Assembly (NCBI GenBank): GCA_016700135.1
Contig: CP065004.1
Span: 480,001-512,000, forward strand
DNA: 32,000 bases
From: Candidatus Saccharimonadota bacterium
Lineage (GTDB): Bacteria > Patescibacteriota > Microgenomatia > UBA1406 > GWC2-37-13
Reading direction: 5' to 3'
The position numbers and the translations under genes are program-made. The notes beneath the pieces were generated by a model. It ran no database searches and was not told where the DNA came from. It was given only the letters and a program-made list of their open reading frames with translations. Positions 347 to 31,680 of this stretch are shown here, piece by piece; the first letter of the stretch is position 1; each line of letters begins with the position of its first letter.

Positions 347-438
347 ACCGGATATACATAAGAGTATAACAGTTTTCACTTAACTTCTTTTTGATACATT
401 TTGATTGCTTGTAAATTGATGTTAATATGTTTATTATT

Positions 439-457
439 TGTGGATAAGTTATCCACA
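439..457. promoter_or_regulatory. Two perfect DnaA boxes in inverted orientation (TGTGGATAA g TTATCCACA)
   Basis: Read directly: 439-447 TGTGGATAA is the reverse complement of the consensus, and 449-457 TTATCCACA is the consensus itself. They lie 22 bp upstream of the probable dnaA ATG at 479. Confidence 0.75.
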
Positions 458-478
458 TTTTATTCGTATTGTTCACTT

Positions 479-1813
479 ATGGCTATGTTGTCGTCTTTTT
501 GGGATTCTTTTTTGGAATCAATATCCGAAAAAAAAGAAAAAAATCCGATATTCTTCTCCATTCTGAAAGATGCACAGCCAGTTGAGATTAAAGGAGATAT
601 CTTGGTTTTATCCTGCAGTAGCAACGGAGCTAAGAGTTATCTTGATAAAAAGAAAGAGGAAATTGAAGATCTTGTTTCCTTCAAGGCCGGTAAAAAAACT
701 TCCGTTGAAATCGTCATACAGGAAAAAAAACTTGACGGGACAGCCCCTCTTTTGGACTTTCAGCCCTCAAAAGAAGATATATATAGGAAGTCGGGTTTAA
801 ATATCAACTACAATTTTGAAAATTTTGCCGTTTCACCGACGAATCAAATTGCTTTTGCTGCCGCACAATCAGTTGCCAAGTCTCCGGGTGTATCCTACAA
901 TCCTTTGTTTTTTTACGGGGGGGTTGGGGTCGGTAAGACCCATCTGGCACAGTCTATTGCCAAAGTCATTCTTGACCAGGACTCGGAAAACAATGTGTAT
1001 TTCTGTTCCAGTGAGAAATTCATGAATGAACTCATTGAATCAATCCGTGCCAAGACTACTGCCCGATTCCGAAAGAAATACCGTTCCCTCAATCTTATTA
1101 TTGTTGATGATATTCAGTTTCTGGCCGGGAAACAAACCGTTCAGGAAGAGTTTTTTCACACGTTCAACAGTATTGTCTCTGCCGGCGGACAGGTGGTTTT
1201 GACATCTGACCGACCACCCTTTGAGATCAGGAATTTAGAAGACCGTCTTCGTTCCCGTTTCTCCGGCGGTCTTATTGTAGATATCCAACAGCCCGATTTT
1301 GAGCTACGCACCGCCATTCTCCTCATTAAAGCAAGAGAAAAGAACATCGCGATTGATATGGAAGCGGCAAAAATCATTGCCGAAACCGTCCTTGATACAC
1401 GTTCTCTTGAGGGGACACTTCTTTCATTGTACGCCCGAACCCTTACTTCCAACTTGAATCGCATAGATTTGAGTGTTGTTGAAGATTTTTTCCATGCGAA
1501 AACAGAACACGTCAAAAAAAGAATGTCTCCGCAGGATGTCATTAAAACCGTTTGTTCTTTTTACAATATAAAACAGTCACATATTAAGGGCGCAACGAGG
1601 AAAAGTACAATAGCGCTCGCCCGTCAGATTGTGATGTATCTTCTCAGAACAGAACTTGATCTGAACCTTGAAGAGGTCGCATATCTTGTAAAGAGAAAGG
1701 ATCATACTACAGTTATTCACGCCATCAATAAGGTTCGTGAAAGAAGTATGAAAGATGATTCTTTCAGGCATGAAATTGAAATGATAACGAAGTCATTGCA
1801 GTCGTCAACATGA
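479..1813 (+). CDS. dnaA: Chromosomal replication initiator protein DnaA
   Basis: Walker A GGVGVGKTHL, IVDDIQFL (Walker B), the sensor/Arg-finger region and a C-terminal DNA-binding domain (ARQIVMYLLR...DHTTVIHA). The longest ORF starts at TTG 401 but would run through the DnaA boxes. ATG 479 (MAMLSSFWDSFL) is the more plausible start. Confidence 0.95.
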   Translation: MAMLSSFWDSFLESISEKKEKNPIFFSILKDAQPVEIKGDILVLSCSSNGAKSYLDKKKEEIEDLVSFKAGKKTSVEIVIQEKKLDGTAPLLDFQPSKEDIYRKSGLNINYNFENFAVSPTNQIAFAAAQSVAKSPGVSYNPLFFYGGVGVGKTHLAQSIAKVILDQDSENNVYFCSSEKFMNELIESIRAKTTARFRKKYRSLNLIIVDDIQFLAGKQTVQEEFFHTFNSIVSAGGQVVLTSDRPPFEIRNLEDRLRSRFSGGLIVDIQQPDFELRTAILLIKAREKNIAIDMEAAKIIAETVLDTRSLEGTLLSLYARTLTSNLNRIDLSVVEDFFHAKTEHVKKRMSPQDVIKTVCSFYNIKQSHIKGATRKSTIALARQIVMYLLRTELDLNLEEVAYLVKRKDHTTVIHAINKVRERSMKDDSFRHEIEMITKSLQSST

Positions 1814-1929
1814 TTTCCACACGTTATAAACACACGTTTTTTGCCGGTTTGTTTTGTCTTGAAAATCCCTTTTCTATTTTATACACTTATGCACAGCTCC
1901 TATTACTACTATTTTATATATAACTAACT
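1814..1929. other. dnaA-dnaN spacer with DnaA-box-like 9-mers and an AT-rich tract; candidate oriC segment
   Basis: 9-mers compared with the relaxed box TTWTNCACA: ATTTCCACA 1813-1821 (8/9), TTATAAACA 1824-1832 (8/9), TTATACACT 1879-1887 (8/9), TTATGCACA 1887-1895 (9/9). An AT-rich stretch follows at 1901-1929 (tattactactattttatatataactaacta). Confidence 0.4.
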
Positions 1930-3030
1930 ATGAAATTCACAATTGATAAGGACATCTTCTTCAATCAAATCAATACTGTCCAGAAATTTACCTCCGATAG
2001 ACTGAACACATCTGCAGCTCTGCAGGGAGTATATATACATATAGAAAAGAAAAAGATTCATTTTTATGCAACAGACCTCAATACTTACTGCCACACATCT
2101 TCGGATCTATCAGCAGACGAATCAATAGATCTTATAATCGAACCGAAAAAGATACTGGAGTTTGTTCAGTTTTTACAGCAGGGAGATATAAACATCACTA
2201 TAGAAAGCAACTCAATCGTCATCCAGCAGGAAAAAACTAAAGGAGCTTTTCCAGTCATTGTCGCTGAAGATTTTCCGTTGCCGCCCGTACTTAAGGAAGA
2301 AGCACAGGATGTGAAGCCTGAATTCTTACTTAATAATCTTCCGTTCCTCCTTTTTACCGCCTCGAGCGATGACGCCAGACCGGTTTTGACTGGGATAAAC
2401 TTTGTTGCTTCTGAGGAAGATCTTACTCTTGTTGCGACAGACGGCTTCAGACTTTCTTTGGTAAAAGAAAAAAGAAAAGGAACGTTTTCATCCATGATTA
2501 TTCCGGCCGATTTTTTGAAAGAGGTTATCAGATATGTCAGAGATGCAAAAACAGTATCTTTCACCTATTCCGAAAAAGAACACTTAGTATTGTTTAAAGT
2601 CGGAGAAACGGAGTTTTACTCACGTCTTATTGACGGAGAGTTTCCTCCCTACGAACGTGTCATCCCGGAAGAAAAGAAAGCAACAGCAGTTCTAAAAAAA
2701 GAGGATTTACTGAGAAATACGAAGCTTATTTCAATTTTTGCACGCGAATACTCGAACGTTATTATCTACGATTTCTCAAAAGACGGACTTGTTCTGTCTC
2801 CGAAAAAAGAAGCAAATGCGGACAACACAACTACGCAGGATATATCGTTTGACGGTGATCAAATCCGGGTTGCATTTAATTATAAGTATGTTGTAGATTT
2901 CCTCAATCATATCGATGCAGAAGAAATCGAAGTTGAACTGTTGAGATCAGATGCTCCGGTTGTCTTTAAAATTCCGAAGAACAATTCTTTTATTCATATT
3001 ATTATGCCGGTGCGCATACAGGAAGGATAA
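1930..3030 (+). CDS. dnaN: DNA polymerase III beta sliding clamp
   Basis: 366 aa, positioned right after dnaA. Clamp motifs present: ARPVLTGINF, ATDGFRLS, LIDGEFPPYERVIP, MPVRI at the C-terminus. Confidence 0.95.
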   Translation: MKFTIDKDIFFNQINTVQKFTSDRLNTSAALQGVYIHIEKKKIHFYATDLNTYCHTSSDLSADESIDLIIEPKKILEFVQFLQQGDINITIESNSIVIQQEKTKGAFPVIVAEDFPLPPVLKEEAQDVKPEFLLNNLPFLLFTASSDDARPVLTGINFVASEEDLTLVATDGFRLSLVKEKRKGTFSSMIIPADFLKEVIRYVRDAKTVSFTYSEKEHLVLFKVGETEFYSRLIDGEFPPYERVIPEEKKATAVLKKEDLLRNTKLISIFAREYSNVIIYDFSKDGLVLSPKKEANADNTTTQDISFDGDQIRVAFNYKYVVDFLNHIDAEEIEVELLRSDAPVVFKIPKNNSFIHIIMPVRIQEG

Positions 3031-13313: not shown

Positions 13314-14306
13314 ATGAAACAAACAATCCTCGTGTATGCTCGGGCGCTTCGTGTCAATCAATGGATCAAAAATTTCATAATTTTTGCGGCAATTTTATTT
13401 GCGGGAGAGCTTTTTGATTTAGAACTTCTTTCCAAAACAATCGGAGCTTTCTTTATTTTCTGTTTGTTGTCGTCTACGTCATATGTCCTGAACGACATTA
13501 TTGATTACCAGTACGACAAGAAACACCCGACAAAAAAACATCGCCCTATTGCTTCAGGTCTTATCTCAATCCCTCAGGCGACTTTTATCGTATTCATTCT
13601 GACACTTGTTTCGCTTCTAATATCTCTCGCATATTCTCTCAATTTCTTTTTTCTGTCGCTCTTCTTCCTTCTTCTTCATTTTTACTATTCTCTATACCTG
13701 AAGCGGTATCCGGTAGTTGATATTTTTACGATTTCCTTGTCTTTTGTCCTCAGAACCCTTGCCGGCGTGGTCGCAACCGGGTATCACGTCCCGATATGGC
13801 TTCTTATGACAGTCTTTTTCATCTCTCTTTTTATGGCATCTGTCAAACGGCATGCCGAGCTTGTCACTCACGGAAGCGATACAAGGGAATCTTTGTATCG
13901 GTACAAAAATCATATGCTGTACTTTCTCTCAACGACTTTTGCGACACTGACGATCGTATCATATGCTTTATATACCTATACGCTGTATATTGATCCGTCG
14001 CAGCAAAGTACGTATAGCGGATCATCAATCTGTGAACAGCTGTATCAAAAACCGAAAGATATCCAAAACTGCGAAAAGCAAAATCTTATCACGAATATTT
14101 CCGAATACTTTCCGAATCTTGAAGCAAGGAAACTGATGATGTTGACGATCCCGTTTGTCGTATACGGAATCTCACGATATGCTCAGCTTCTGTATGAAAA
14201 AGAAGAAGGAGAAAGACCTGAAAAAATCATTACGACAGATAAACCGCTGCTCATCACAATCTTCCTGTGGGGATTTATGATATTTCTTCTTATTTACGTA
14301 TTCTAG
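13314..14306 (+). CDS. UbiA-superfamily prenyltransferase, decaprenyl-phosphate phosphoribosyltransferase-like
   Basis: Polytopic. First Asp-rich motif NDIIDYQYDKKHPTKKHRPIASG. ATG 13314 is preferred over GTG 13296 because a TATAAT at 13299-13304 lies inside the extension. There is a hydrophilic insertion (YIDPSQQSTYSGSSICEQLYQKPKDIQNCEKQ). Confidence 0.8.
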   Translation: MKQTILVYARALRVNQWIKNFIIFAAILFAGELFDLELLSKTIGAFFIFCLLSSTSYVLNDIIDYQYDKKHPTKKHRPIASGLISIPQATFIVFILTLVSLLISLAYSLNFFFLSLFFLLLHFYYSLYLKRYPVVDIFTISLSFVLRTLAGVVATGYHVPIWLLMTVFFISLFMASVKRHAELVTHGSDTRESLYRYKNHMLYFLSTTFATLTIVSYALYTYTLYIDPSQQSTYSGSSICEQLYQKPKDIQNCEKQNLITNISEYFPNLEARKLMMLTIPFVVYGISRYAQLLYEKEEGERPEKIITTDKPLLITIFLWGFMIFLLIYVF

Positions 14307-15259
14307 TAGGCATTGCAGGTAATATATCCTTTGTAGTACATGCCGACAGTTCCGGTGTGTGTGGTTATTCCCCCTCCATTTTCATGATAGTAAGTGAATG
14401 TCTTACATTCTTTATTTCCTATTTGCCATTTATCAATAAAAATATTCCGATCACCCGTTGAGCCGTTTATCCCTCCCGAGCAGCCCGGGCACCAGTCATT
14501 GGTAAAACGGACACGAATATCGTCAGTAAGAGGTGTGTCTTTGGGAAGAACGGCGTAATAAGATCCGTTATCTTTTGTCGTATACGTTTTTAATAGTTTT
14601 CCATTGTGATAGAACTCCATAATCGGATATACTTGACCGCCTGGTTCGGTGGTTGCCGAAGCACGAGCTGATATTGTGACCTGATCGGCTCGGCTGAATC
14701 CCGGGATCCGGAGGATATCGCTTCCGATAATATTTACAATCAATACAACCCCGAATGTGAAAATGAGACCGATGATGGCACTGGTGATCATCCGTTTGCC
14801 TTGTGCGATTTTGAAACGGTCTCCCTGTGCCGTTACCAAGAGGAAGGCTCCGTAAATAATTACTCCGAAGGCAAGGACACCTACTGCAGGAAAAATAAGA
14901 TTATTCAGCAAAAAATTAAGTACCCCTCCGCCGGCACTTGCATCAGTAAAAGAACTGATGTCGGTGCCCAGACAGCCGATTTGAGTGAAGTACTTCCCGG
15001 CAGCCGGGACAGGCGGTTTGTTGTAATTGGCTGCAGCTTTATCCTCATTGATTTTTAGTGTCTCATTGGCTGTGGGATCAGTGGTAATTGCATATTGAGC
15101 AGGGTATAAACACTGCGCACAATCCGCCCAGTTTTCAGGAGGAGTTCTGCCGTTACAGTAACCGCAGGCATCACATTCGGCGATCCTTTGAGCGGATACA
15201 TCGTTTGCCGGGAAAAACAAAATACTGAATACGGCTAAAAATAACAGGAGCTTTTTCAT
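14303..15259 (-). CDS. T4SS-type (TrbC/VirB2-like) pilin with a Cys-rich N-region and a ~125-aa C-terminal beta-rich extension
   Basis: Signal peptide MKKLLLFLAVFSILFFPANDVSAQ. The two-TM pilin core VLNFLLNNLIFPAVGVLAFGVIIYGAFLLVTAQGDRFKIAQGKRMITSAIIGLIFTFGVVLIVNII matches the pattern of CPR T4SS_pilin proteins. The extension (nt 14306-14692) carries a CBM-like F.ND...DRN.F.D motif. Confidence 0.6.
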   Translation of the reverse strand: MKKLLLFLAVFSILFFPANDVSAQRIAECDACGYCNGRTPPENWADCAQCLYPAQYAITTDPTANETLKINEDKAAANYNKPPVPAAGKYFTQIGCLGTDISSFTDASAGGGVLNFLLNNLIFPAVGVLAFGVIIYGAFLLVTAQGDRFKIAQGKRMITSAIIGLIFTFGVVLIVNIIGSDILRIPGFSRADQVTISARASATTEPGGQVYPIMEFYHNGKLLKTYTTKDNGSYYAVLPKDTPLTDDIRVRFTNDWCPGCSGGINGSTGDRNIFIDKWQIGNKECKTFTYYHENGGGITTHTGTVGMYYKGYITCNAY

Positions 15260-18596: not shown

Positions 18597-19958
18597 ATGT
18601 CCAAGGACGACAACTCATTCGTAAATGCTTTGATTATCTGGCCATTGAAATTCGTGGGGATGATTCTCCAACTCCTTTTTTTTGCGGCGTTTGTCTTTGC
18701 GGGTTGGTTCGTCCTGCAAATGGTCGGAGTCCTGAATGTACAGGTTCCGGTGTCCGGTGCTTCCATGCTTCCCACGTTGCCTGAGGAAGGGTATGTCCCG
18801 TTTCAGCGGTTTTATTATGACGGGCGGGTTCAGAAATTTATTCCTCAAACGATTGCAAAGGGGGACATCGTTGTTTTTGAGAATGACGAAACGCATGAAG
18901 AACTGGAAAAGCAGCAGAAAGACTCAAGCGGATTTGTAAAACGCGTTATAGGAGTGGCCGGAGATATCGTGCAGATTCGCGACGGTTTTGTCTATGTCAA
19001 CGGGAAGCGTCTTGAAGAACCGTATACCCTGAAGCCCCGCTCCACGTTCGGAGGGAAAGAAATCCAGGATTGCGAAGTTGTGAAAGTCCCGGAAGGCAAG
19101 CTGTTTGTGTTGGGAGATAATAGAAAATTGAGTATGGATTCCCGGCAGATAGGGCTTGTTTCAGTACAGGATGTCCAGTTTTATATCCCGTACGAGAAGC
19201 AGGAAAATGAGTTTGCAAATCGCTGGCGCGACTCATCACATGACTTTGATACAGAGAACGAATCACTGTTTAATGTCGATGATTTTGTGTTCCTTCTCAA
19301 TCAAAAACGGCGGGAAAACGATCTTTCTGAACTGAAGTACCAGCCCAAGCTGGAACGGTCCGCACAGTACCGGGCAGAAGTCATGCTGAAATACAATGAG
19401 TTTGATTCCGATGCTCCGCACAGCGGATATTCCATGAAAGATGCTATGAGTGACGCCAATTACTCAAACATCGTATACGGTGAGTTTCCGATGATCGGGT
19501 ACTATGACGCGGAAGAATTGTATGATGCTTTTATGGAACAGCCCGGTGCTTCAGAGTTTCTTTTAAACAAAGACTATGATGAAATCGGTGTTTCAACATT
19601 TGTCGGAGAACTCAATAACTGCCCGGTACAGGTGGTAGTTCAGCACCTGGCAGGATATGTCCCGCCCGACTACTCACAATCACAGATATCGGATTGGAAA
19701 GACGGTCTCTCAAGACTGCGAAAGATCCAACCCGGGTGGCAGCAGCTTAAATCTTATAACGATTTGTACTCTCAGAATAAGGCTGATATTGATAGGATCA
19801 ATGAAATACTCGACATCCGAATAGCCCGTTTTTCACAAATTATTCAGCGTATGGAGGCAAATCAATGGCTGACTGAACAAGAAAAATCCTGGATAAAGGA
19901 AGATACCAATCTTGCCGAAGAACAAAATCGACTGGCGGAAAGATTGAATGCCCGTTAG
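18597..19958 (+). CDS. lepB: Signal peptidase I (S26) fused to a CAP/SCP(YkwD)-like domain and a C-terminal helical tail
   Basis: SPase boxes SGASMLPTL, KRVIGVAGD and GDNRKLSMDSR lie in residues ~50-200. Residues ~225-353 follow the CAP/YkwD pattern (N..RR.N.L..L.....L..SA..RA..M......HSG......M......GE........EL..AFM..PG...LL...Y..IGV). Residues 354-453 are helical. Confidence 0.85.
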   Translation: MSKDDNSFVNALIIWPLKFVGMILQLLFFAAFVFAGWFVLQMVGVLNVQVPVSGASMLPTLPEEGYVPFQRFYYDGRVQKFIPQTIAKGDIVVFENDETHEELEKQQKDSSGFVKRVIGVAGDIVQIRDGFVYVNGKRLEEPYTLKPRSTFGGKEIQDCEVVKVPEGKLFVLGDNRKLSMDSRQIGLVSVQDVQFYIPYEKQENEFANRWRDSSHDFDTENESLFNVDDFVFLLNQKRRENDLSELKYQPKLERSAQYRAEVMLKYNEFDSDAPHSGYSMKDAMSDANYSNIVYGEFPMIGYYDAEELYDAFMEQPGASEFLLNKDYDEIGVSTFVGELNNCPVQVVVQHLAGYVPPDYSQSQISDWKDGLSRLRKIQPGWQQLKSYNDLYSQNKADIDRINEILDIRIARFSQIIQRMEANQWLTEQEKSWIKEDTNLAEEQNRLAERLNAR

Positions 19959-20684: not shown

Positions 20685-21368
20685 ATGCCACAACAGCAGG
20701 AAGCAATATTTCAACAGGCGACACCATTACCTCCATCTTTGAATCCCCAGGTCCTTTATAGCTGGAAAGCTCCCCTGCGGGCATACAAAAAAAGGAGCCG
20801 ATATGTGTTGCGATTTTATGTTGCCGTAGCGATGCTTCTTACTGTGATCATATTTTTCCTGGGAGACAGGATACTTATTATTCCTATCTGGTCAATACTG
20901 TTTCTTTTTTATATTCTCACCATTACTCCCCCTCCGCAGGTAGAAAACCGCATCACAAAATTCGGTCTTGAAACGGCCGGAATCACGTTGAAATGGGACG
21001 TACTTTCACATTTTTATTTTACGGAGCGTTTCAATTTCACCATACTGACCGTTGTGACACAGCCTCCCTACTACATGCATGCCTATCTTGTCATACCGAA
21101 AGAACGTATCAAAAAAGATGTCATGAAGATTCTCGCGGAGCATATTGTGTATCAGGAAAAACCACAGCTTGGACTTACAGACAGATTAATAAATCTTCTA
21201 TCTTATCTTATTCCCGATGAGGAAGAGGGTGAAGACGTCCCCGCAAAGATTACCATGAAGCCTAAAGAGGAAAGCAAAATTGATGAGGTTAAAGATACTC
21301 TTGCATCTTTTTTCCAAAGACAGAAGAAGACATCTCCTTCACGCCCAACAAACGAGCCCAGTATGTGA
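20685..21368 (+). CDS. Hypothetical two-TM membrane protein with an acidic/basic C-terminal tail
   Basis: 227 aa. TM hairpin VLRFYVAVAMLLTVIIFFLG...IPIWSILFLFYILTI, followed by a small globular domain. The 3' end overlaps the convergent gene by 80 nt. Confidence 0.5.
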   Translation: MPQQQEAIFQQATPLPPSLNPQVLYSWKAPLRAYKKRSRYVLRFYVAVAMLLTVIIFFLGDRILIIPIWSILFLFYILTITPPPQVENRITKFGLETAGITLKWDVLSHFYFTERFNFTILTVVTQPPYYMHAYLVIPKERIKKDVMKILAEHIVYQEKPQLGLTDRLINLLSYLIPDEEEGEDVPAKITMKPKEESKIDEVKDTLASFFQRQKKTSPSRPTNEPSM

Positions 21369-21909
21369 CTCCTTCATCAGTGGTGACCAGATACCCGTCG
21401 AGTTCTTTTGCGAGCATAATGAGGTCAAAATCAGCCTTGCTGTCGATGGTTCCCGTGCGTGTGGCATTCCGATACCGTTCACGCAGTTTGGTAAGAATCT
21501 TACCGCAGGCAATTTGAAACTCTTTATGCGGCAGTACCTCTTTTCCCATAAACATTTCTGCTGTGTGTATAATCTCTTCTTCCGCAACTTTCATGGCGCG
21601 GTAGGCTCTATCTCTATAATCTTCGATAAGACGCTCAATAATGACTGCCGAAACAGACTGTTCTGACGTTCTGGGAGATTTAACCGTAACAGAGCCAAAG
21701 AGCGATTTTAGCAACGGATCGTCCGGACTGTCAAAAAAAGATGTGATTTCTTGGACTATTGTAGGAGGCACGACGATTTCGACCTCCCCATCAGGAGCTT
21801 TTTGTACTGCCCTGACTATGTTTTTTACAATATCTGCCGTAGTCTCCCCTAGACCGAGTGCGGCTTCCATGTTGAAGAACAAATTTGTGTCAATAATATA
21901 GCTTTTCAT
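21289..21909 (-). CDS. PIN-like protein of the UPF0278 / RNA-ligase-partner family = HARP-like (homolog of Aquifex RNase P 38, RNA-free RNase P) candidate
   Basis: 206 aa. N-terminal MKSYIIDTN (Asp7) and a C-terminal block LRERYRNATRTGTIDSKADFDLIMLAKELDGYLVTTDEGVTYWARLLGVK. This closely parallels my recollection of the Aq_880/HARP C-terminus (LREKYR...G.LDSK.D.D...LA.ELDG.LV..DEG...WA...G.K). The size and the helical insertion between the PIN halves also fit. Confidence 0.6.
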   Translation of the reverse strand: MKSYIIDTNLFFNMEAALGLGETTADIVKNIVRAVQKAPDGEVEIVVPPTIVQEITSFFDSPDDPLLKSLFGSVTVKSPRTSEQSVSAVIIERLIEDYRDRAYRAMKVAEEEIIHTAEMFMGKEVLPHKEFQIACGKILTKLRERYRNATRTGTIDSKADFDLIMLAKELDGYLVTTDEGVTYWARLLGVKEMSSSVFGKKMQEYL

Positions 21910-22418
21910 ACAAGTATTATAGCAGGGATGTTCTTTTCGGTTATTTCTTCACTCCGGAAATAGTGAGTTTTTCGGCTTTAGGAAAGGATTTTTTAATTAT
22001 TTATCTCACGGTGCTGATTTTATAAAGAGCCTTGTATCAATATATATTCCGATATTTCTATATCCCTCACTTTTCCCGCTTTACACATCGAAAGTGTAAG
22101 AATTGATAAAAGTGCCCGTGCACTATATTGCACAGATTTTTAGATCAAGCCATTCACAGATCCCGTGAATAAGAGAGAAGTATATATTTCTCCAATGTCC
22201 TGATGTACAACATCTGTTCAAGAAATACATAAAAAGATTCATATATTATTACAGGATCTTTAGCAACATATACCGCATTTTGCTGATATGTTTTGATATG
22301 GTAAATCAACTTGCAATACTACAGATAGTGGTATACATTTGTAATGCACCCAAGATATGAAGAAAAGGGGATTAAGAATTAGCGGGATATCACGCGGAAG
22401 GTACGTAAGATTGTACAT

Positions 22419-22865
22419 ATGAAGTGTCTTTTTTGTCAACACACGAATACTGAAGTCATTGAAACGCGCGTTTCAGAAAACAGAACCGCTATCAGAAGGC
22501 GCCGTTCTTGTCCGCAGTGCAAGAAAAGATTTACGACATATGAACGCATAGAGGAGCTGCCGATACTGGTTATCAAGAGAGATCTGAGAAGAGAGCGTTT
22601 TGACAGAAAGAAACTGATGAACGGCATATTTAAAGCAGTAGGGAAGACGACGGTGACAGCAGATCAGGTCGAAGATATCGTAAACCAGATAGAACAGGAT
22701 ATTACACAGGCAGGCAAAACGGAAGTCAGCAGCAGTGAGATAGGTAGTATGGTTGCTTACCAACTGAAAAACATAGATAAGATCGCGTACATCCGGTTTG
22801 CATCAGTGTTTAGAAGATTTGTCGATGTTGAAGAGTTTGAATTGGAGCTGAGAAAGCTCTCATGA
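22419..22865 (+). CDS. nrdR: Transcriptional repressor NrdR
   Basis: MKCLFCQHTNTEVIETR....RRRR.C..C..RFTTYE zinc ribbon followed by an ATP-cone. Confidence 0.95.
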   Translation: MKCLFCQHTNTEVIETRVSENRTAIRRRRSCPQCKKRFTTYERIEELPILVIKRDLRRERFDRKKLMNGIFKAVGKTTVTADQVEDIVNQIEQDITQAGKTEVSSSEIGSMVAYQLKNIDKIAYIRFASVFRRFVDVEEFELELRKLS

Positions 22866-22908
22866 CAACCTCAAGAAGTCCAAATATTATAAATTAGATA
22901 CAACTATT

Positions 22909-25314
22909 ATGAAACTGACAGGTGTTTCAGAGAAAGTATTCCTTGACAGATACTCTCTCAAAGACATAAAGGGCAATCCAGTTGAAGCACAACCGGATGA
23001 GATGTGGCGCCGTATCGCCAATGCTGTCGCCGAGCAGGAAAAGCCTTCACAGCGCAAGAAATGGGCTGATGCATTCTATAATGCAATGGAGGATTTTAAG
23101 TATGTTCCCGGAGGCCGCATTCTTGCAGGCGCAGGTACAGGCTATTCGGTAACTTTTTATAACTGTTTTGTGATTCCGTCTCCGAAAGATTCCCGTGGAG
23201 GAATTCTGAATACATTGGGAGAAATGATTGAGATTATGGCTCGGGGAGGCGGTGTCGGAATTAACCTTTCCACACTTCGACCACGAGGGGCACGGGTTGA
23301 GAAAGTAAACGGATTTTCTTCGGGGCCCTGCAACTGGGCAGAGATATTCTCACTTGCTACTAAAGATATTATTCAGCAGGGCGGTACCCGTCGCGGAGCT
23401 CTTATGCTTATGCTCTGGGACTGGCACCCTGATATCGAAGAATTTATTACTGTAAAACAAGATCTTTCACGCATCAACGGAGCAAACCTTTCCGTTGCCG
23501 TTTCAGACTCCTTTATGGAAGCAGTCAAGAAAGATGAGGACTGGCCTCTTATTTTCCCGGATAAAAATGATCCTGAATATGACGAAGTGTGGGACGGGGA
23601 TATTGAGGGCTGGAAAGCGAAAGGAAAGAAAATCAAAGTGTATAAAGTTGTCAAAGCAAGAAAGATCTGGGATCTTATTGCTGAAGCTGCCTGGAAGTCT
23701 GCAGAGCCCGGAGTAGTGTTTATGGAGAGATACAACAAAATGCACAATAACTACTACTGGAATAAAATCATCTGCGTAAACCCATGCGGAGAAGAAGGTC
23801 TTCCGGGATGGGGAGTATGTAATCTTGGTTCTATCAATCTCTCAGCCTTTGTCAAAGGATATGAGGTTGATCGTGCCGGAACATTTGATTTTGAGGAACT
23901 TCGAAAGACAGTACGCATTGCAGTAAGACTCCAGGACAATGTTGTAGATATGGATCCGTACGTGTTTCCGGGGATAAAGAAGACCCAGCTTGAAGGAGAA
24001 AGAAGAATTGGTCTTGGGACTATGGGGCTCGGGGACACTCTTATTAAGCTTCATATTCGTTACGGTTCAGAAGAGTCTTTGAAGTTCATCGAGAAAGTTT
24101 ACAAGATGATTGCACATGAATCATACCTTGCATCTTCTGATAATGCGAAAGAGAAGGGGTCCTTCAAGAAATTTGACGGTGCTAAATTTGTGAAGAGCGG
24201 TTTCATGAAAACTCTTCCTGCCGAAATCAGAAAGAAAATAAAAAAAGACGGCATTAGAAACTCAGTGCTTCTCATGCAGGCTCCCACGGGATCAACTTCC
24301 CTTATGGCCAGTACAACATCAGGAATAGAGCCTGTATATGAATTTGAATTCATAAGGCGAGATCGTCTTGGAGAACATGCCATACGGCATCATCTCTATG
24401 ATGAATGGTACAAAAAACATGAAGCTGAGATGAAGGCCGGAACAATCAAAAGACCGGAGTACTTTGTATCAGCAAATGATCTTTCTCCTGAAGATCATGT
24501 CATGGTTCAGGCTGTCATTCAGAAATATGTTGATGCATCAATTTCGAAGACTGTCAATGCCCCGACCACACACACGGTTGACGATGTAAAAAGACTCTAT
24601 ACATTGGCATATGAACAGGGATTGAAGGGTATTGCCTATATGAGAGAGGGATCCCGTGCCGGTGTTCTTGAGAGAAAACCTGATGCCAAAGCTGCGCCGG
24701 ACAAAGCAGAACAGCCGAAAATGCAGATACCGACAGTAAAACCGCGACCGATGGTTGTTCACGGATCGACATACAAAATCGATACACCGGTCGGACGGGC
24801 ATATGTCACCATAAATACCAACGGCAATAATGAACCACATGAAGTATTTATGACAATCGGTAAAGCAGGGACAGATGTATTTGCCATGGCAGAAGGGCTG
24901 GGTCGTATGATCTCTATGTACTTTAGATCTACCGCTCATCTTCCGGCTGAGGAGCGCATCAAAAACGTCATCAACGAGCTTCAGGGAATCGGCGGCGGGC
25001 GCACGATGGGATTTGGAAAAGAACGTGTCCGCAGTATGCCTGATGCCGTAGCCAAAGTCTTGAAAATGCATTTTGAGTACTTGAATAAACAACGAACAGA
25101 GACTCAAAACGGCAACGGCCATACAACAGAAGTGAAGCTAGTGAGTGAAGTCGAACAGCCGGCACTTCTTGCCGAACAAGGTCAGCAACTGGTTGCTGCT
25201 GCAGACGTACCGAAAGAAAAGCATTTTGACATCTGTAAAGAATGCGGTCAGGCATTACTTGCACGTGAAGAAGGTTGTGCAAAGTGCTATGGCTGCGGTT
25301 ATGCAGAATGTTAA
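22909..25314 (+). CDS. nrdJ: Class II (adenosylcobalamin-dependent) ribonucleotide reductase
   Basis: 801 aa. Active-site VNPCGEEGL, the TGSTS segment and ISKTVN. The C-terminal Cys-rich tail is CKECGQALLAREEGCAKCYGCGYAEC. Confidence 0.95.
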   Translation: MKLTGVSEKVFLDRYSLKDIKGNPVEAQPDEMWRRIANAVAEQEKPSQRKKWADAFYNAMEDFKYVPGGRILAGAGTGYSVTFYNCFVIPSPKDSRGGILNTLGEMIEIMARGGGVGINLSTLRPRGARVEKVNGFSSGPCNWAEIFSLATKDIIQQGGTRRGALMLMLWDWHPDIEEFITVKQDLSRINGANLSVAVSDSFMEAVKKDEDWPLIFPDKNDPEYDEVWDGDIEGWKAKGKKIKVYKVVKARKIWDLIAEAAWKSAEPGVVFMERYNKMHNNYYWNKIICVNPCGEEGLPGWGVCNLGSINLSAFVKGYEVDRAGTFDFEELRKTVRIAVRLQDNVVDMDPYVFPGIKKTQLEGERRIGLGTMGLGDTLIKLHIRYGSEESLKFIEKVYKMIAHESYLASSDNAKEKGSFKKFDGAKFVKSGFMKTLPAEIRKKIKKDGIRNSVLLMQAPTGSTSLMASTTSGIEPVYEFEFIRRDRLGEHAIRHHLYDEWYKKHEAEMKAGTIKRPEYFVSANDLSPEDHVMVQAVIQKYVDASISKTVNAPTTHTVDDVKRLYTLAYEQGLKGIAYMREGSRAGVLERKPDAKAAPDKAEQPKMQIPTVKPRPMVVHGSTYKIDTPVGRAYVTINTNGNNEPHEVFMTIGKAGTDVFAMAEGLGRMISMYFRSTAHLPAEERIKNVINELQGIGGGRTMGFGKERVRSMPDAVAKVLKMHFEYLNKQRTETQNGNGHTTEVKLVSEVEQPALLAEQGQQLVAAADVPKEKHFDICKECGQALLAREEGCAKCYGCGYAEC

Positions 25315-27744: not shown

Positions 27745-27805
27745 AAGTATGGGTTGATTTTTAATGCATGATGGTGTAATTTTACTATACGTTAAAAATA
27801 TAAAT

Positions 27806-27957
27806 GCTTGGTAAGCATCATCCCGCCGAGTAAGGGAAAAGATGCTAAGTATCAGGGAATGAGGTGTAATTCCTCAACTGTGCCGCAGCGGTAATTCCGA
27901 TTTTGATCGGATAAGTCCGAAGACCGACCAAGTCCTCTACCCCGAGCAGGGATATCT
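27806..27957 (+). promoter_or_regulatory. Cobalamin (AdoCbl) riboswitch plus expression platform
   Basis: The conserved core CAGGGAATGAGGTGTAATTCCTCAACTGTGCCGCAGCGGTAA (27853-27894) parallels the E. coli btuB leader core (AGGGAAUCCAGUGCGAAUCUGGAGCUGACGCGCAGCGGUAA). The B12 box AAGTCCGAAGACCGACC (27913-27929) parallels btuB AAGCCCGAAGACCUGCC. Supporting helices: P1 CTTGGT 27807-12 / ACCAAG 27927-32; AGCATC 27814-19 / GATGCT 27841-46; GAGG 27861-64 / CCTC 27872-75; TCCGAT 27896-901 / ATCGGA 27906-11. Confidence 0.85.
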
Positions 27958-29241
27958 ATGTCACCATCTGTCGTCGAATGCGAGACATGCGTCTTGCCAG
28001 AACAAGAACCGCAAATTATCGGAGAATTGCCTCTCGAGAGTACTTTCCCTCTTGATCCGGAGATAGAGTTTCGGGCGATAAATCGCACAAAAAGTGAAAC
28101 AGACCCGGATTACCTAACTCCCGAACAGCTCAACTACTACCAGAGGGAAAATTTAGTCTGTTTTTTATGTGAATTTGCAGGTAAAGTACCGTACAAAAAA
28201 ATTCCGGGAATTGTTACCGATACCGGGAGACTGAAAATCTGTAATATGGATGTCCTGCAAATGGCTGAAAAAGCGGCAGATATTGCGGGAAAAGGATCAA
28301 GGGAAGAGAGCGAACTCATCGGCTGGCAAAAAGCAATTGATTCTATACAATGGGGAGCAAACAGAGTCGATATCGTATCTCCACCGGCAATTGCGGACTA
28401 TATGCTGACATTTTCTCTGTATATTGATGATTATGACCCCAGAATCGGCGGGCGGCCGGTCAGTCAGATTGTATCAAGGCGCGATGAACAGATGGGTTCT
28501 CTCGAGGTAAGTCGCGGAATTTATCAGAATCTTGCTCAAAACGCCGGACAGCATTATGATATCGCTCATTTTTCCGGTCCGGAAGACTTTATTACCAATC
28601 CAATAGTTCATCATACAGAAGACAGTGACAGTCTTGCCCGTGCTGTCACCAGCATCGGTGTCGATGAGAATGACATCGTTTACTCCGAACGATTTGAGCA
28701 GGAAGTACGTGAAGTGCTTGAGCCGATGATACAGGAGTATCTGCGTCAGGTAGACGAACTGTCCTATTTAAGCAGCAGCGAAAAGCATGAATGGCCGTAT
28801 GAAGAAAAAAAACATGCATTAGATGCTCATTTACATACCATGTTCAGTTTTGCAAAAAGGATCGGAAGAGAACTGCAGACGAATTACTGGAATACCGATG
28901 TCGGACAAACCGTTCGTGATATCATGAAACTGCAAACGATTGATCCCATGCAGTATTATGCACATGCAGAAGCAATCCGGCAATCGGAAAGAGCCACAAT
29001 TACAGGAGGCACCTCCTGTCCCAGTCTGAATTCTACATCTGCGATGGAGAGCTTATCAGGGTTTAGTGAATCCGGCATGTCCTTCAATACGGCAATTCAG
29101 AGTTTTATGCAAGGTGAATCAAAAAGTAAAAAAACACTCGAATGCACCTGTCCGAATTGTGATAAAAAAGTTGCGGCCCGAATTGAAAACAATAAAATCA
29201 CCTGTCCCAACTGCAAGGCATCGGCACCGTATAAATGCTAA
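27958..29241 (+). CDS. Uncharacterised 427-aa soluble protein with N-terminal Cys cluster and C-terminal zinc ribbon (riboswitch-controlled)
   Basis: The ATG lies 26 nt after riboswitch P1. No TM segments. Cys clusters: CETC...CFLC (N-terminal) and CTCPNC-x14-CPNC-x7-C as the very C-terminus. I recognise no family. Confidence 0.7.
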   Translation: MSPSVVECETCVLPEQEPQIIGELPLESTFPLDPEIEFRAINRTKSETDPDYLTPEQLNYYQRENLVCFLCEFAGKVPYKKIPGIVTDTGRLKICNMDVLQMAEKAADIAGKGSREESELIGWQKAIDSIQWGANRVDIVSPPAIADYMLTFSLYIDDYDPRIGGRPVSQIVSRRDEQMGSLEVSRGIYQNLAQNAGQHYDIAHFSGPEDFITNPIVHHTEDSDSLARAVTSIGVDENDIVYSERFEQEVREVLEPMIQEYLRQVDELSYLSSSEKHEWPYEEKKHALDAHLHTMFSFAKRIGRELQTNYWNTDVGQTVRDIMKLQTIDPMQYYAHAEAIRQSERATITGGTSCPSLNSTSAMESLSGFSESGMSFNTAIQSFMQGESKSKKTLECTCPNCDKKVAARIENNKITCPNCKASAPYKC

Positions 29242-29290: not shown

Positions 29291-29746
29291 ATGTCAGACA
29301 CAAAGAACGTAACCGACAATCATACATCGATAAAGCACCTGATTGATGACCACCATGCTTCAAATCAGAGTTCTCATTCCAAAGAGGGTGAACCTGCGCG
29401 GCCCCGTTCGGTTGAGAAGCTGCGGGATGAAGAGTATATTGCACCGGAAAACGAACCGACAATAGAAGACAAAGAACTGGAAAAATATATTGAGATTGAA
29501 CGTGATGTTCCGGAGATTCACCCTGATCTTAAAAAAGCGGGACTGCAGGCGCTGGACACGACATCTCTTGATCCGAAACAGAGGGTGCGGTTGCCTATTG
29601 CAGATGAAGAGATTATGAACGGACTGGATGAACCGTTGTCATCTTCCTTCCGTTGGCTGGCGGAGTTTGCTCTATTCATGCTCAAAAGGGCACATCTTGC
29701 CCTGAAACGGGTGCACGGAAAAGTAGTAAGAGTGATTCAAAAGTAA
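29291..29746 (+). CDS. Uncharacterised 151-aa protein with a His-rich N-terminus and an amphipathic C-terminal helix
   Basis: NHTSIKHLIDDHHASNQSSHSKE has 6 His in 23 residues. The C-terminus is FRWLAEFALFMLKRAHLALKRVHGKVVRV. It lies 49 nt downstream of the 427-aa gene. Confidence 0.5.
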   Translation: MSDTKNVTDNHTSIKHLIDDHHASNQSSHSKEGEPARPRSVEKLRDEEYIAPENEPTIEDKELEKYIEIERDVPEIHPDLKKAGLQALDTTSLDPKQRVRLPIADEEIMNGLDEPLSSSFRWLAEFALFMLKRAHLALKRVHGKVVRVIQK

Positions 29747-30384: not shown

Positions 30385-31248
30385 ATGGATGAATATTTTC
30401 TTCCGAAGCTTTTGGAACGATTTGTCTCGTTTCTGAATGACCAGGGAAAATCAAAGTTTACGGTAGTTGCCTACAAGAAAGATATTGAGCAATTTATCGG
30501 CTATTTGGCTTCTCATGAGAAGTCCGATATTCGTGACGTAAAAAAAGAGGATATTGAAGGCTTCATCCAGAATCTGCTTGAAAAGAAATACACTAAAAAA
30601 TCCGCTTCACGTAAGCTCAATTCCATCAGAACTTTTTTCAGATTTTTGAAGCATGAAAGCGTCATCAGTGCAAATCCTGCATTTGACATCTCACATCCGA
30701 AATATGTACAAACTCCGCCTCGCATTCTTTCAAAGATGGAGTATCGTGCACTTCGGGACGTTGCAAAAGAAGATCCCCGCACCTATGCTCTTGTTGAAGT
30801 TTTGCTTCAGACCGGTATTAAGATCGGAGAACTTGCAACACTTCGCGTCGGAGATATCAATAGTAACGTCATTCATATTCAGAAATACGGTAAAAATATT
30901 GAGCGTGATGTCCCGTTGAATAATGCAGCCGCTAAGGCTCTGGAAGTTTATATCAAAGACCGCGGTGAAAATGCTAAATCGGATCATGTTTTTATCACCA
31001 GAACTGGGAATCCGCTTCTTATCAGAAACATCCGACAGATTATTGACCGTTGTTTCCAGGAAGTCGGTATTGAAAATGCCACAGTAAATGACCTTCGCAA
31101 CACATTCATCGCTCATCAGCTGAGAAACGGTGCAACTCTTGAATACATCTCAAATATCGTCGGACACCGACGAATCTCTTCTACCGAAAGGTTTCTCAAC
31201 CTTGTCAAACAGGAAGCAGACCGAAAAGAGAAACTCGGCGAGCTGTAA
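30385..31248 (+). CDS. Tyrosine-recombinase (XerC/XerD)-like protein with substituted catalytic residues
   Basis: 287 aa, collinear with XerD: SAM-like N-domain, then the catalytic-domain blocks. At XerD catalytic positions it has TGIKIGEL (Arg-I -> Lys146), VNDLRNTF (His-II -> Asn235, Arg-II kept), GH (His-III kept) and GHRRISSTERFLNL (nucleophile Tyr -> Phe270, codon TTT 31192-31194). Confidence 0.85.
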   Translation: MDEYFLPKLLERFVSFLNDQGKSKFTVVAYKKDIEQFIGYLASHEKSDIRDVKKEDIEGFIQNLLEKKYTKKSASRKLNSIRTFFRFLKHESVISANPAFDISHPKYVQTPPRILSKMEYRALRDVAKEDPRTYALVEVLLQTGIKIGELATLRVGDINSNVIHIQKYGKNIERDVPLNNAAAKALEVYIKDRGENAKSDHVFITRTGNPLLIRNIRQIIDRCFQEVGIENATVNDLRNTFIAHQLRNGATLEYISNIVGHRRISSTERFLNLVKQEADRKEKLGEL

Positions 31249-31266
31249 TCTTGGTATACTTTCTTC

Positions 31267-31680
31267 ATGAATATTACAGTCCACACAGACGGCGGCTCAC
31301 TCAATAACCCCGGACAGGCCGCAATAGGTTTTCATATAGATGAAGGATCCCGCAGAATTCATGACCACAGTGAAGCAATCGGTATTGCCTCAAACAACGT
31401 TGCGGAATATACTGCGCTTATTCGTGCTTTGACCTATCTGAGAGATAAAATAGCTGTCAAAGAACTGAACGTAGAACGAATTCTTGTCATCGCGGACTCT
31501 GAACTTATGATCAAACAGGTCACGGGACTCTACAAAGTCAAAAATCCGGATATCCGCACGCTTTTTAATCAGGTAAAAGTCCTCGAAATGGAACTTGGAG
31601 TCCCGATTTCTTACAAGCATGTTCTTCGCGCAGAAAACTCAGAAGCAGACGCCCTGGTGAAAAAAGCTCTCGGCAGATAA
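31267..31680 (+). CDS. rnhA: Ribonuclease HI
   Basis: 137 aa. DGGS..NPG (Asp), NNVAEY.AL (Glu), ADSEL (Asp) and SEADALV (Asp) form the DEDD set. Confidence 0.9.
   Translation: MNITVHTDGGSLNNPGQAAIGFHIDEGSRRIHDHSEAIGIASNNVAEYTALIRALTYLRDKIAVKELNVERILVIADSELMIKQVTGLYKVKNPDIRTLFNQVKVLEMELGVPISYKHVLRAENSEADALVKKALGR

Follow-up and report, generated by a model that had tools for sequence, protein, structure and literature searches.

A HARP-family homolog of protein-only RNase P encoded near the replication origin in bacteria of the candidate phyla radiation, with a putatively distinct Glu141-less, long-spike architecture

Introduction

HARP is the smallest known RNase P, and the reason why organisms keep it is an open question. 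Here we analyzed a stretch of 32,000 nucleotides, in the following called the window, from Candidatus Saccharimonadota bacterium (GenBank assembly GCA_016700135.1, contig CP065004.1, positions 480,001 to 512,000), a bacterium of the candidate phyla radiation (CPR). The window encodes a 206-residue protein that a first-pass annotation, made from the DNA sequence alone, had proposed to be a HARP. The locus thus raises the question of whether this protein is a genuine HARP and, if so, whether it would take the place of the RNA-based RNase P or work alongside it.

Overall, sequence profiles, a predicted structure and comparison with other genomes identify the window protein as a genuine HARP and make it probable, though by no means certain, that it is encoded by a vertically inherited, origin-proximal CPR gene, belongs to a distinct subgroup with a long spike and without the Glu141 of the Aquifex enzyme, and by homology would act in pre-tRNA 5' processing, with the balance leaning towards coexistence with an RNA-based enzyme.

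Family membership and predicted structure

The gene in question is the following:

21289..21909, minus strand: gene of the HARP family for a protein of 206 aa (plus stop), homologous to protein-only RNase P (matches to PF08745 and TIGR03875, AlphaFold2 (AF2) model, Foldseek)

The open reading frame (ORF) runs from ATG to stop at the position given in the first-pass annotation, which had left the strand unstated. The translation begins with MKSYIIDTN and thereby places an aspartate at position 7 as claimed, and the quoted C-terminal block (LRERYRNATRTGTIDSKADFDLIMLAKELDGYLVTTDEGVTYWARLLGVK) was located at residues 142-191. The profile search that had been suggested as a check placed the protein above the curated cut-offs of both PF08745 (PIN_5/HARP; 148.6 bits, cut-off 27, E=2.1e-43, profile positions 2-204 of 205) and TIGR03875 ('RNA ligase partner protein'; 148.1 bits, cut-off 95.3). 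When all PDB sequences were searched with phmmer, the seven significant matches were without exception annotated as 'RNA-free ribonuclease P' (E=1.7e-28 to 1.5e-18) and comprised the HARPs of Planctomycetes, Thermococcus celer, Aquifex, Halorhodospira and Hydrogenobacter; generic PIN proteins appeared at E>1e-3 only. The best match, at E=1.7e-28, was the HARP of Planctomycetes bacterium GWF2_40_8 (7e8k, 7e8o), which is likewise from an uncultured, metagenome-derived organism.

For the structural comparison, the window protein was modelled with AF2 from an alignment of 50 clade sequences (pLDDT 92, pTM 0.84). The model shows a PIN-like core with strands at residues 3-6, 44-47 and 173-175, and the helical insert predicted earlier appears as two long helices (residues 88-120 and 128-151). 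In a Foldseek search against the PDB, the top 34 matches were all HARPs, led by the tRNA-bound Aquifex, Planctomycetes (7e8o) and Hydrogenobacter structures at E~1e-14, with TM scores of 0.82-0.84 by query length and 0.89-0.91 by target length. VapC toxins, whose PIN-like core with an acidic active site is distantly related and which have no spike domain, followed only at E~1e-2 and a TM score of about 0.35. The protein can be divided as follows:

21649..21909, minus strand: N-terminal half of the PIN-like metallonuclease core, aa 1-87, with Asp7-Thr8-Asn9 and Glu54

21457..21648, minus strand: spike-helix (SH/PrH) insertion, aa 88-151, two long helices (model and alignment; PMC12217051, PMC8266387)

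21289..21456, minus strand: C-terminal half of the PIN core, aa 152-206, with D156-S157-K158-A159-D160, D178-E179 and the C-terminal helix

The C-terminal helix (aa 195-203) is confidently modelled and carries the conserved motif VFGKKMQxYL; the equivalent helix is required for oligomerisation in Aq880 (PMC8266387). By profile, sequence and predicted fold, the window protein is thus a genuine HARP, and the earlier assignment to the HARP/UPF0278/'RNA ligase partner' family rather than to generic PIN toxins is correct, as Pfam, TIGR03875 and the PDB sequence and structure matches all support it.

Within the family, the window protein stands apart. It scored far below the cut-offs of all curated NCBIfam HARP equivalogs (NF003340-NF003345, PRK04358.1-x), the best scores being 117 bits for NF003345 (cut-off 260) and 115.9 bits for NF003344 (cut-off 241). 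To judge from these scores, the CPR clade falls in none of the curated HARP subfamilies. Taken together, this is a small family: exhaustively searching 1.84 billion representatives gave 156 clusters (50% identity), of which only 15 reached E<=1e-30.

Active-site and tRNA-contact residues

To compare functional residues, 118 clade members were aligned with the Aa, Pb and Tc HARPs, and the residues defined by mutagenesis and cryo-EM in the Aquifex aeolicus enzyme Aq_880 (AaHARP) were taken as the reference (PMC12217051, PMC8266387). In this alignment D138-S139-K140-E141-D142 of AaHARP corresponds to D156-S157-K158-A159-D160 of the window protein, and D160-E161 to D178-E179. D156, S157, D160 and D178 (AaHARP D138, S139, D142 and D160) are invariant in the 118 clade members. 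Position 7 is Asp in all 112 members with an N-terminus, the remaining 6 being gapped there, and in the 50-sequence clade alignment Asp7-Thr8-Asn9 and Glu54 are invariant. The basic residues of the spike correspond as well, with R99, R104, K107, K137, K141, R143, R145, R147 and R151 of the window protein equivalent to R94, K99, R102, K119, R123, R125, K127, R129 and R133 of AaHARP. R143, R145 and R151 are invariant in the 118 members, and R99 and R147 are kept in 116 and 117 of them, respectively, with Lys otherwise. The conserved residues of the clade map to AaHARP residues that were shown to be necessary by mutagenesis (PMC12217051, PMC8266387). As far as can be read from the alignment, the site of four Asp and one Ser and the arginines of the elbow and the cleavage site are under strong purifying selection.

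AaHARP (7f3e, 8kd9) and the HARP of Hydrogenobacter thermophilus (8kda, 8ssf/8ssg) have PF08745 and the fold in common with the window protein, at about 26-29% identity in structural alignments, as well as the equivalents of Asp7, Asp138, Ser139, Asp142, Asp160, Arg94, Arg125, Arg129 and Arg133 and the C-terminal helix. By analogy with the solved HARP-tRNA complexes, we infer how the window HARP might oligomerise, bind tRNA and cleave it. It would dimerise via its spike helices, and the C-terminal helix would help these dimers to form higher oligomers. The tRNA elbow would then be measured by one dimer while a neighbouring dimer cuts the -1/+1 bond. The putative catalytic site would consist of Asp7, Asp156, Ser157, Asp160 and Asp178, and the pre-tRNA 5' leader would be removed by two-metal-ion hydrolysis. 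RNase P activity has been shown for all three archaeal HARPs tested and for several bacterial ones (PMC10941002).

Several observations weigh against a straightforward transfer of this function. The equivalent of Glu141 is Ala159 in the window protein, and among the clade members the position is occupied by A (99), T (13), V (3), G (2) or S (1), but never by D or E. A Glu is present there in every solved HARP structure, including that of Hhal2243, and the E141Q variant of AaHARP is inactive and binds tRNA about 10-fold more weakly (PMC12217051). The first-pass annotation had named loss of conserved active-site residues, in a genome with canonical rnpB and rnpA, as a finding that would speak against it; one of six key residues is indeed gone, whereas the other five are kept. 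Arg102, which contacts the tRNA elbow, is replaced by Lys107 in the window protein, and its position varies among the clade members (K 46, T 18, N 16, D 13, Q 12). At its tip, the spike exceeds that of the Aa, Pb and Tc HARPs by about 13 residues, which could alter the molecular ruler. Furthermore, no activity on pre-tRNA was seen in vitro for four recombinant bacterial HARPs, and knocking out HARP in archaea caused no phenotype (PMC12153264), so that family membership is no guarantee of an RNase P function in vivo. With Glu141 missing, the Arg102 position variable and the spike lengthened, activity and specificity of the window protein are not to be assumed.

Compared with AaHARP, the window protein further has Asn in place of Ser9, as do 111 of the 118 clade members, and the hosts differ as well, a CPR bacterium versus hyperthermophilic Aquificaceae. 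The Planctomycetes HARP has Glu141, Arg102 and a 20-residue spike, as compared to 34 residues in the window protein. Of 95 full-length family representatives, roughly half have Glu141, and most of these resemble the characterised HARPs in having a short spike; many long-spike representatives are without it. Thus, the CPR clade falls within an uncharacterised part of the family rather than a unique exception, and Glu141 may not be universally required. Sequence comparison places the Glu141-less, long-spike CPR HARPs in a distinct subgroup.

Distribution and inheritance

Relatives of the window HARP were collected by a genome scan with one genome per GTDB species. They were found in at least 93 species-level genomes, and the best 80 of these 93, which were kept as loci, show 41-99% identity over the best-aligned segment. 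Together with the window and three further contigs that were chosen through the neighbouring membrane-protein gene alone (see below), this gave 84 HARP loci. The relatives are labelled Roizmanbacteria, Microgenomates or Patescibacteria, and many are third-party assemblies labelled 'uncultured Gammaproteobacteria'. In loci that include dnaA, DnaA is 49-61% identical to that of the window, and the synteny is common to all; the label Gammaproteobacteria is therefore evidently wrong. As a side observation, metagenome-assembled genome records with this label and one named 'Weeksellaceae bacterium' carry CPR-type synteny (e.g. L001, L002, L006, L008 and L013 of our locus collection).

The window itself contains dnaA, dnaN, glnA, nrdR, a class II ribonucleotide reductase (RNR) and genes for proteins resembling type IV secretion system (T4SS) pilins. 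Together with the names of the relatives, this gene content assigns the window to a Candidatus Roizmanbacteria-type member of the Microgenomates/Patescibacteria (CPR), and the contig that carries its HARP measures 1,448,136 bp. The occurrence in at least 93 species, the DnaA identity and the conserved synteny with nrdR or dnaA-dnaN argue for vertical descent and purifying selection. A vertically inherited, origin-proximal gene in a housekeeping context of the Roizmanbacteria-type CPR lineage is the best explanation for this HARP.

Bacterial HARPs are otherwise sporadic and have been reported from five phyla beyond the Aquificae and 'a few unclassified bacteria' (PMC10941002, PMC6380272). A genome-mining survey from 2025 counted 178 bacterial HARP cases, confined to few extremophile orders, and its table of 751 HARP-positive genomes lists no Patescibacteria, Roizmanbacteria or Microgenomatia (PMC12153264). 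In our literature search, no paper connecting Roizmanbacteria with RNase P was found. The CPR HARP clade is automatically annotated in databases and undescribed in the literature searched.

Gene neighbourhood

The genes around HARP in the window are:

20685..21368, plus strand: gene for an uncharacterised 227-aa membrane protein with an N-terminal motif, two transmembrane helices and a PH-like beta-sandwich

21910..22418, no strand: intergenic region of 509 bp between the divergent HARP and nrdR genes (consensus matches only)

22419..25314, plus strand: nrdR and the gene of a class II (B12-dependent) RNR, divergent from HARP

401..3030, plus strand: dnaA-dnaN, dnaA start probably at 479

The membrane-protein gene is convergent with HARP in all 84 loci, and the three contigs picked by this gene alone all carry HARP. 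Its homologs encode proteins of about 160-280 aa with the conserved N-terminal motif SWKAPLRAYKKRS and a poorly conserved tail, the coding region of which usually overlaps the 3' end of HARP (median 53 nt, 80 nt in the window). In Roizmanbacteria UBA1450 the membrane protein is better conserved than HARP (91% versus 82% identity). In its predicted structure, two transmembrane helices precede a PH-like beta-sandwich, which has weak fold matches to PH/PTB domains. No Pfam, NCBIfam or PADLOC family was found for it, a match to DUF5673 being below threshold, and the 373 clusters of its family are all named 'hypothetical protein'. So far, the family appears to be restricted to the HARP-bearing lineage. 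The membrane protein could be a functional partner of HARP, or the two could just form a very stable gene pair.

On the other side, HARP adjoins and is divergent from nrdR in 43 of the 84 loci, including the window. A TATAAT in the intergenic region precedes the HARP ATG by about 8 nt, and a site at 22439-22410 on the minus strand resembles a promoter (11 of 12 matches); both are consensus matches only. In 27 other genomes HARP abuts dnaA-dnaN, either divergent from dnaA (14 genomes), with a gap of about 80-100 nt in L085 (10497-12571) and L087 (10473-12514), or co-directional after dnaN (13 genomes), with about 2 nt between dnaN and the following HARP in L019 (7454-10621). HARP is always near origin-linked genes. 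As a separate observation, a perfect DnaA box (TTATCCACA) is present at 441-449 of the window, just upstream of the probable dnaA start at 479, and the cumulative GC skew climbs from about 4 kb onwards; both fit a window that begins at or near the replication origin.

Rnl3 RNA ligase is present in 89% of the surveyed HARP-positive genomes and adjacent to HARP in 80% of the bacterial ligase-positive ones (PMC12153264). No RNA-ligase domain was found in the ORFs of at least 110 aa in the 32-kb window, and no Rnl3 was among the conserved neighbours within ±6 kb of HARP in 80 loci. A linkage of HARP to tRNA genes was not observed either, and no tRNA gene is present in the window.

RNase P RNA and RnpA in HARP-bearing CPR bacteria

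The first-pass annotation had reported neither an RNase P RNA signature in the window nor the usual rpmH-rnpA pair upstream of dnaA, where it had seen comF instead, and had considered a replacement of RNase P outside the Aquificae. All three observations hold. Rfam searches of the window at gathering thresholds and at E<=1 found no RNase P RNA, rpmH-rnpA is not upstream of dnaA in the window, and the partial ORF in this place encodes a double zinc ribbon of the ComF type (DZR_2, E=1.2e-7); in L085 the corresponding full-length protein combines DZR_2 with Pribosyltran. The phylogenetic part of the claim has precedent, since HARPs beyond the Aquificae are known, including some from HARP-only 'unclassified bacteria' and Nitrospirae (PMC6380272); a location outside the Aquificae would therefore not by itself be a first.

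The searches were extended to the HARP loci and covered 1.37-1.47 Mb, i.e. about ±10 kb around HARP per genome. With RnpA and L34 of E. coli, B. subtilis and T. maritima as tblastn queries, no match was found in these loci. A scan for CR-I/CR-V motifs detected no RNase P RNA in them, and Rfam at E<=0.01 was also negative for the three loci with the best CR-I (P4-region) motif matches. A hidden Markov model built from 120 CPR RnpAs found no RnpA within about 10 kb of HARP, and tblastn with L34, RnpA, YidD, YidC and Jag from CPR bacteria found none of these within the same distance, even in about 30 loci that include dnaA. In ordinary CPR genomes (L082-L084), by comparison, dnaA and dnaN are transcribed in one direction and the cluster rpmH-rnpA-yidD-yidC-jag runs divergently from dnaA.

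A synthetic CPR-style RnpA bait retrieved 1969 RnpA proteins (PF00825). Among the 120 RnpAs listed, the sources were Parcubacteria- or Pacebacteria-like with a DnaA 38-39% identical to that of the window, and none was on a HARP-bearing contig. CPR bacteria in general keep RnpA, which says nothing of Roizmanbacteria specifically. A diverged RNase P RNA was reported by Lui et al. (2021) for all of 35 circularised CPR genomes, 11 of them Microgenomatia according to the genome table of the paper, and 10 of these 35 RNAs were found only below Rfam thresholds (PMC8172020). Most HARP-bearing bacteria also have rnpA and rnpB (PMC6380272, PMC10941002).

The nucleotide at position -1 of the tRNA genes provides a further hint. 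In A. aeolicus, which is HARP-only, 38 of 44 pre-tRNAs have A(-1) (PMC12439589). Among 19 tRNA genes in our HARP loci, counted after two ARAGORN boundaries had been corrected by hand, position -1 is U in 10, A in 7 and C in 2; these genes represent three tRNA species and are in many cases orthologous. The A(-1) enrichment of Aquifex is thus not seen in this small and redundant sample.

One RNase P or two?

Coexistence of both enzymes has precedent in Halorhodospira halophila (Hhal2243), Thermodesulfatator indicus and Euryarchaeota, where HARP occurs together with a ribonucleoprotein (RNP) RNase P and has an accessory or unclear role. We lean towards a HARP that works in parallel to a diverged RNA-based RNase P and has not replaced it, because CPR bacteria keep RnpA, RNase P RNA is present in 35 of 35 CPR genomes, most HARP-bearing bacteria retain rnpA and rnpB, and A(-1) is not enriched. 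For the organism of the window, we consider it most likely that the genome encodes both HARP and the RNA-based enzyme. The CPR clade differs from the coexisting HARPs described so far, which are patchy by genus, mostly from extreme habitats and in 89% of cases accompanied by Rnl3, often adjacent (PMC12153264). In the CPR clade, HARP is found in every locus examined, with no Rnl3 within ±6 kb and another conserved neighbour.

This difference is also where the case for a replacement begins, according to which the Roizmanbacteria lineage would have lost rnpA and rnpB and HARP would be the sole RNase P as in Aquificaceae. HARP is kept in every locus examined across a deep lineage, as opposed to its patchy, genus-level spread in archaea and Proteobacteria, and it is paired with its neighbour in 84 of 84 loci, including all three genomes picked via the neighbour gene alone. 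The genomes are small (0.9-1.45 Mb), which would make redundancy costly. The cluster rpmH-rnpA-yidD-yidC-jag is found neither in the window nor in the roughly 30 HARP loci that extend to dnaA, and the dnaA-divergent slot used by rpmH-rnpA in other CPR bacteria is filled by HARP itself in 14 loci. Moreover, Daniels et al. (2019) described some 'unclassified bacteria' with HARP but no RnpA (PMC6380272). However, the absence of rnpA and rnpB covers only about ±10 kb around HARP, and the essential rpmH must be located elsewhere too, so that the cluster may simply have moved. RNase P RNA was present in all complete CPR genomes checked, including the 10 that yielded it only below Rfam thresholds (PMC8172020). 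At position -1, A accounts for 7 and U, the RNP preference, for 10 of the 19 genes, a small sample of genes that are not independent; a U(-1) opposite A73 can extend the stem and is poorly handled by HARPs. Finally, a sole housekeeping enzyme would be expected to retain Glu141 and Arg102. We therefore regard a loss of the RNA-based enzyme as unlikely, and it is only tentatively that this CPR lineage (Roizmanbacteria and relatives, at least 93 species) can be said to have swapped its RNP RNase P for a Glu141-less, long-spike HARP at the origin.

Alternatively, the protein may have kept the HARP fold and most of the active site without a role as RNase P, and instead cleave 3' trailers or structured RNAs or bind or store tRNAs, possibly together with the membrane protein. 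The clade-wide loss of Glu141, the variable Arg102 position and the longer spike would fit such a divergence. AaHARP also cleaves 3' trailers (PMC12217051), pre-tRNA is not cut in vitro by several bacterial HARPs, and none of the known HARP systems shows a comparable strict pairing with a PH-like membrane protein. On the other hand, the invariance or near-invariance of R143, R147, R99, R151, the four catalytic Asp and the Ser is hard to explain without tRNA-like substrates and catalysis, about half of the family representatives are also without Glu141, and the convergent orientation of the HARP and membrane-protein genes means that they are not co-transcribed. A diverged function thus appears rather unlikely.

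A generic VapC-type PIN toxin or an anti-phage defence nuclease is rejected as highly improbable, for although the VapC-like group of PIN domains includes the HARPs, for which an origin from toxin-antitoxin systems has been proposed, VapC structures match only at E~1e-2 with TM~0.35, PIN sequences only at E>1e-3 and no PADLOC model at all, the protein has 206 aa with a spike insertion as compared to about 130-140 aa for VapC, the 509-bp intergenic region and divergent nrdR are found upstream in place of an antitoxin-like gene, and the locus lies in the chromosome close to the origin, with synteny kept throughout the lineage.

A genuine HARP that would process pre-tRNA 5' ends beside an RNA-based RNase P is thus the reading that we prefer. 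The CPR clade breaks two generalisations of the survey, the restriction to extremophiles and the tight linkage to Rnl3, and its variation at the Glu141 position offers a natural way to learn which active-site residues are truly necessary in HARPs. The lineage is also well suited to deciding whether an organism has one or two RNase Ps, as it includes HARP-bearing chromosomes that are already complete, such as CP066689.1 with 1,103,789 bp, MGBH01000001.1 with 1,216,931 bp, DCTC01000001.1 with 940,728 bp and contig_30883 of ERZ25039515 with 1,231,892 bp. Should the RNP enzyme be absent after all, one of the most conserved ribozymes in biology would have been lost independently for a second time, and the CPR lineage would become the second large lineage of bacteria, and the first with a reduced genome outside the Aquificaceae, to live without RNase P RNA; the replacement would rely on a HARP variant lacking a residue thought to be essential.

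Other features of the window and its relatives

The only real Rfam match in the window is a cobalamin riboswitch (55.8 bits):

27793-27946, plus strand: cobalamin riboswitch

27958-29241 and 29291-29746, plus strand: ORFs of 427 and 151 aa, no Pfam match

The riboswitch precedes the two ORFs, and the pair adjoins genes for a PduO-type adenosyltransferase and the B12-dependent class II RNR and recurs in L081, L085 and L086. The 427- and 151-aa proteins are candidates for B12 uptake or handling in an organism with a small genome.

Further features of the window are:

18597-19958, plus strand: signal peptidase I (Peptidase_S26) that carries a fused CAP/cysteine-rich secretory protein domain at its C-terminus, an unusual LepB architecture

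14303-15259, minus strand: T4SS-pilin-like segment with a CBM60-like carbohydrate-binding module, both below Pfam cut-offs

30385-31680 and beyond, plus strand: XerC/D-type recombinase and RNase H, with TraC-like, PrgI-like and VirB4/TraG-like type IV secretion genes downstream

The T4SS-pilin-like/CBM60-like protein is also encoded in L006 (16007-16930) and is conserved near HARP in about 38 loci. The recombinase and type IV secretion genes, whose continuation was seen in L081 and L085-L087, stay near the dnaA-HARP region in several genomes. Finally, ARAGORN predicted tmRNAs with an unusually long tag peptide of 30 residues (ATSFDDAVADLKAFASDMVFGSRQQAMLYA) in L064 (18538-18956) and L068 (18525-18944).

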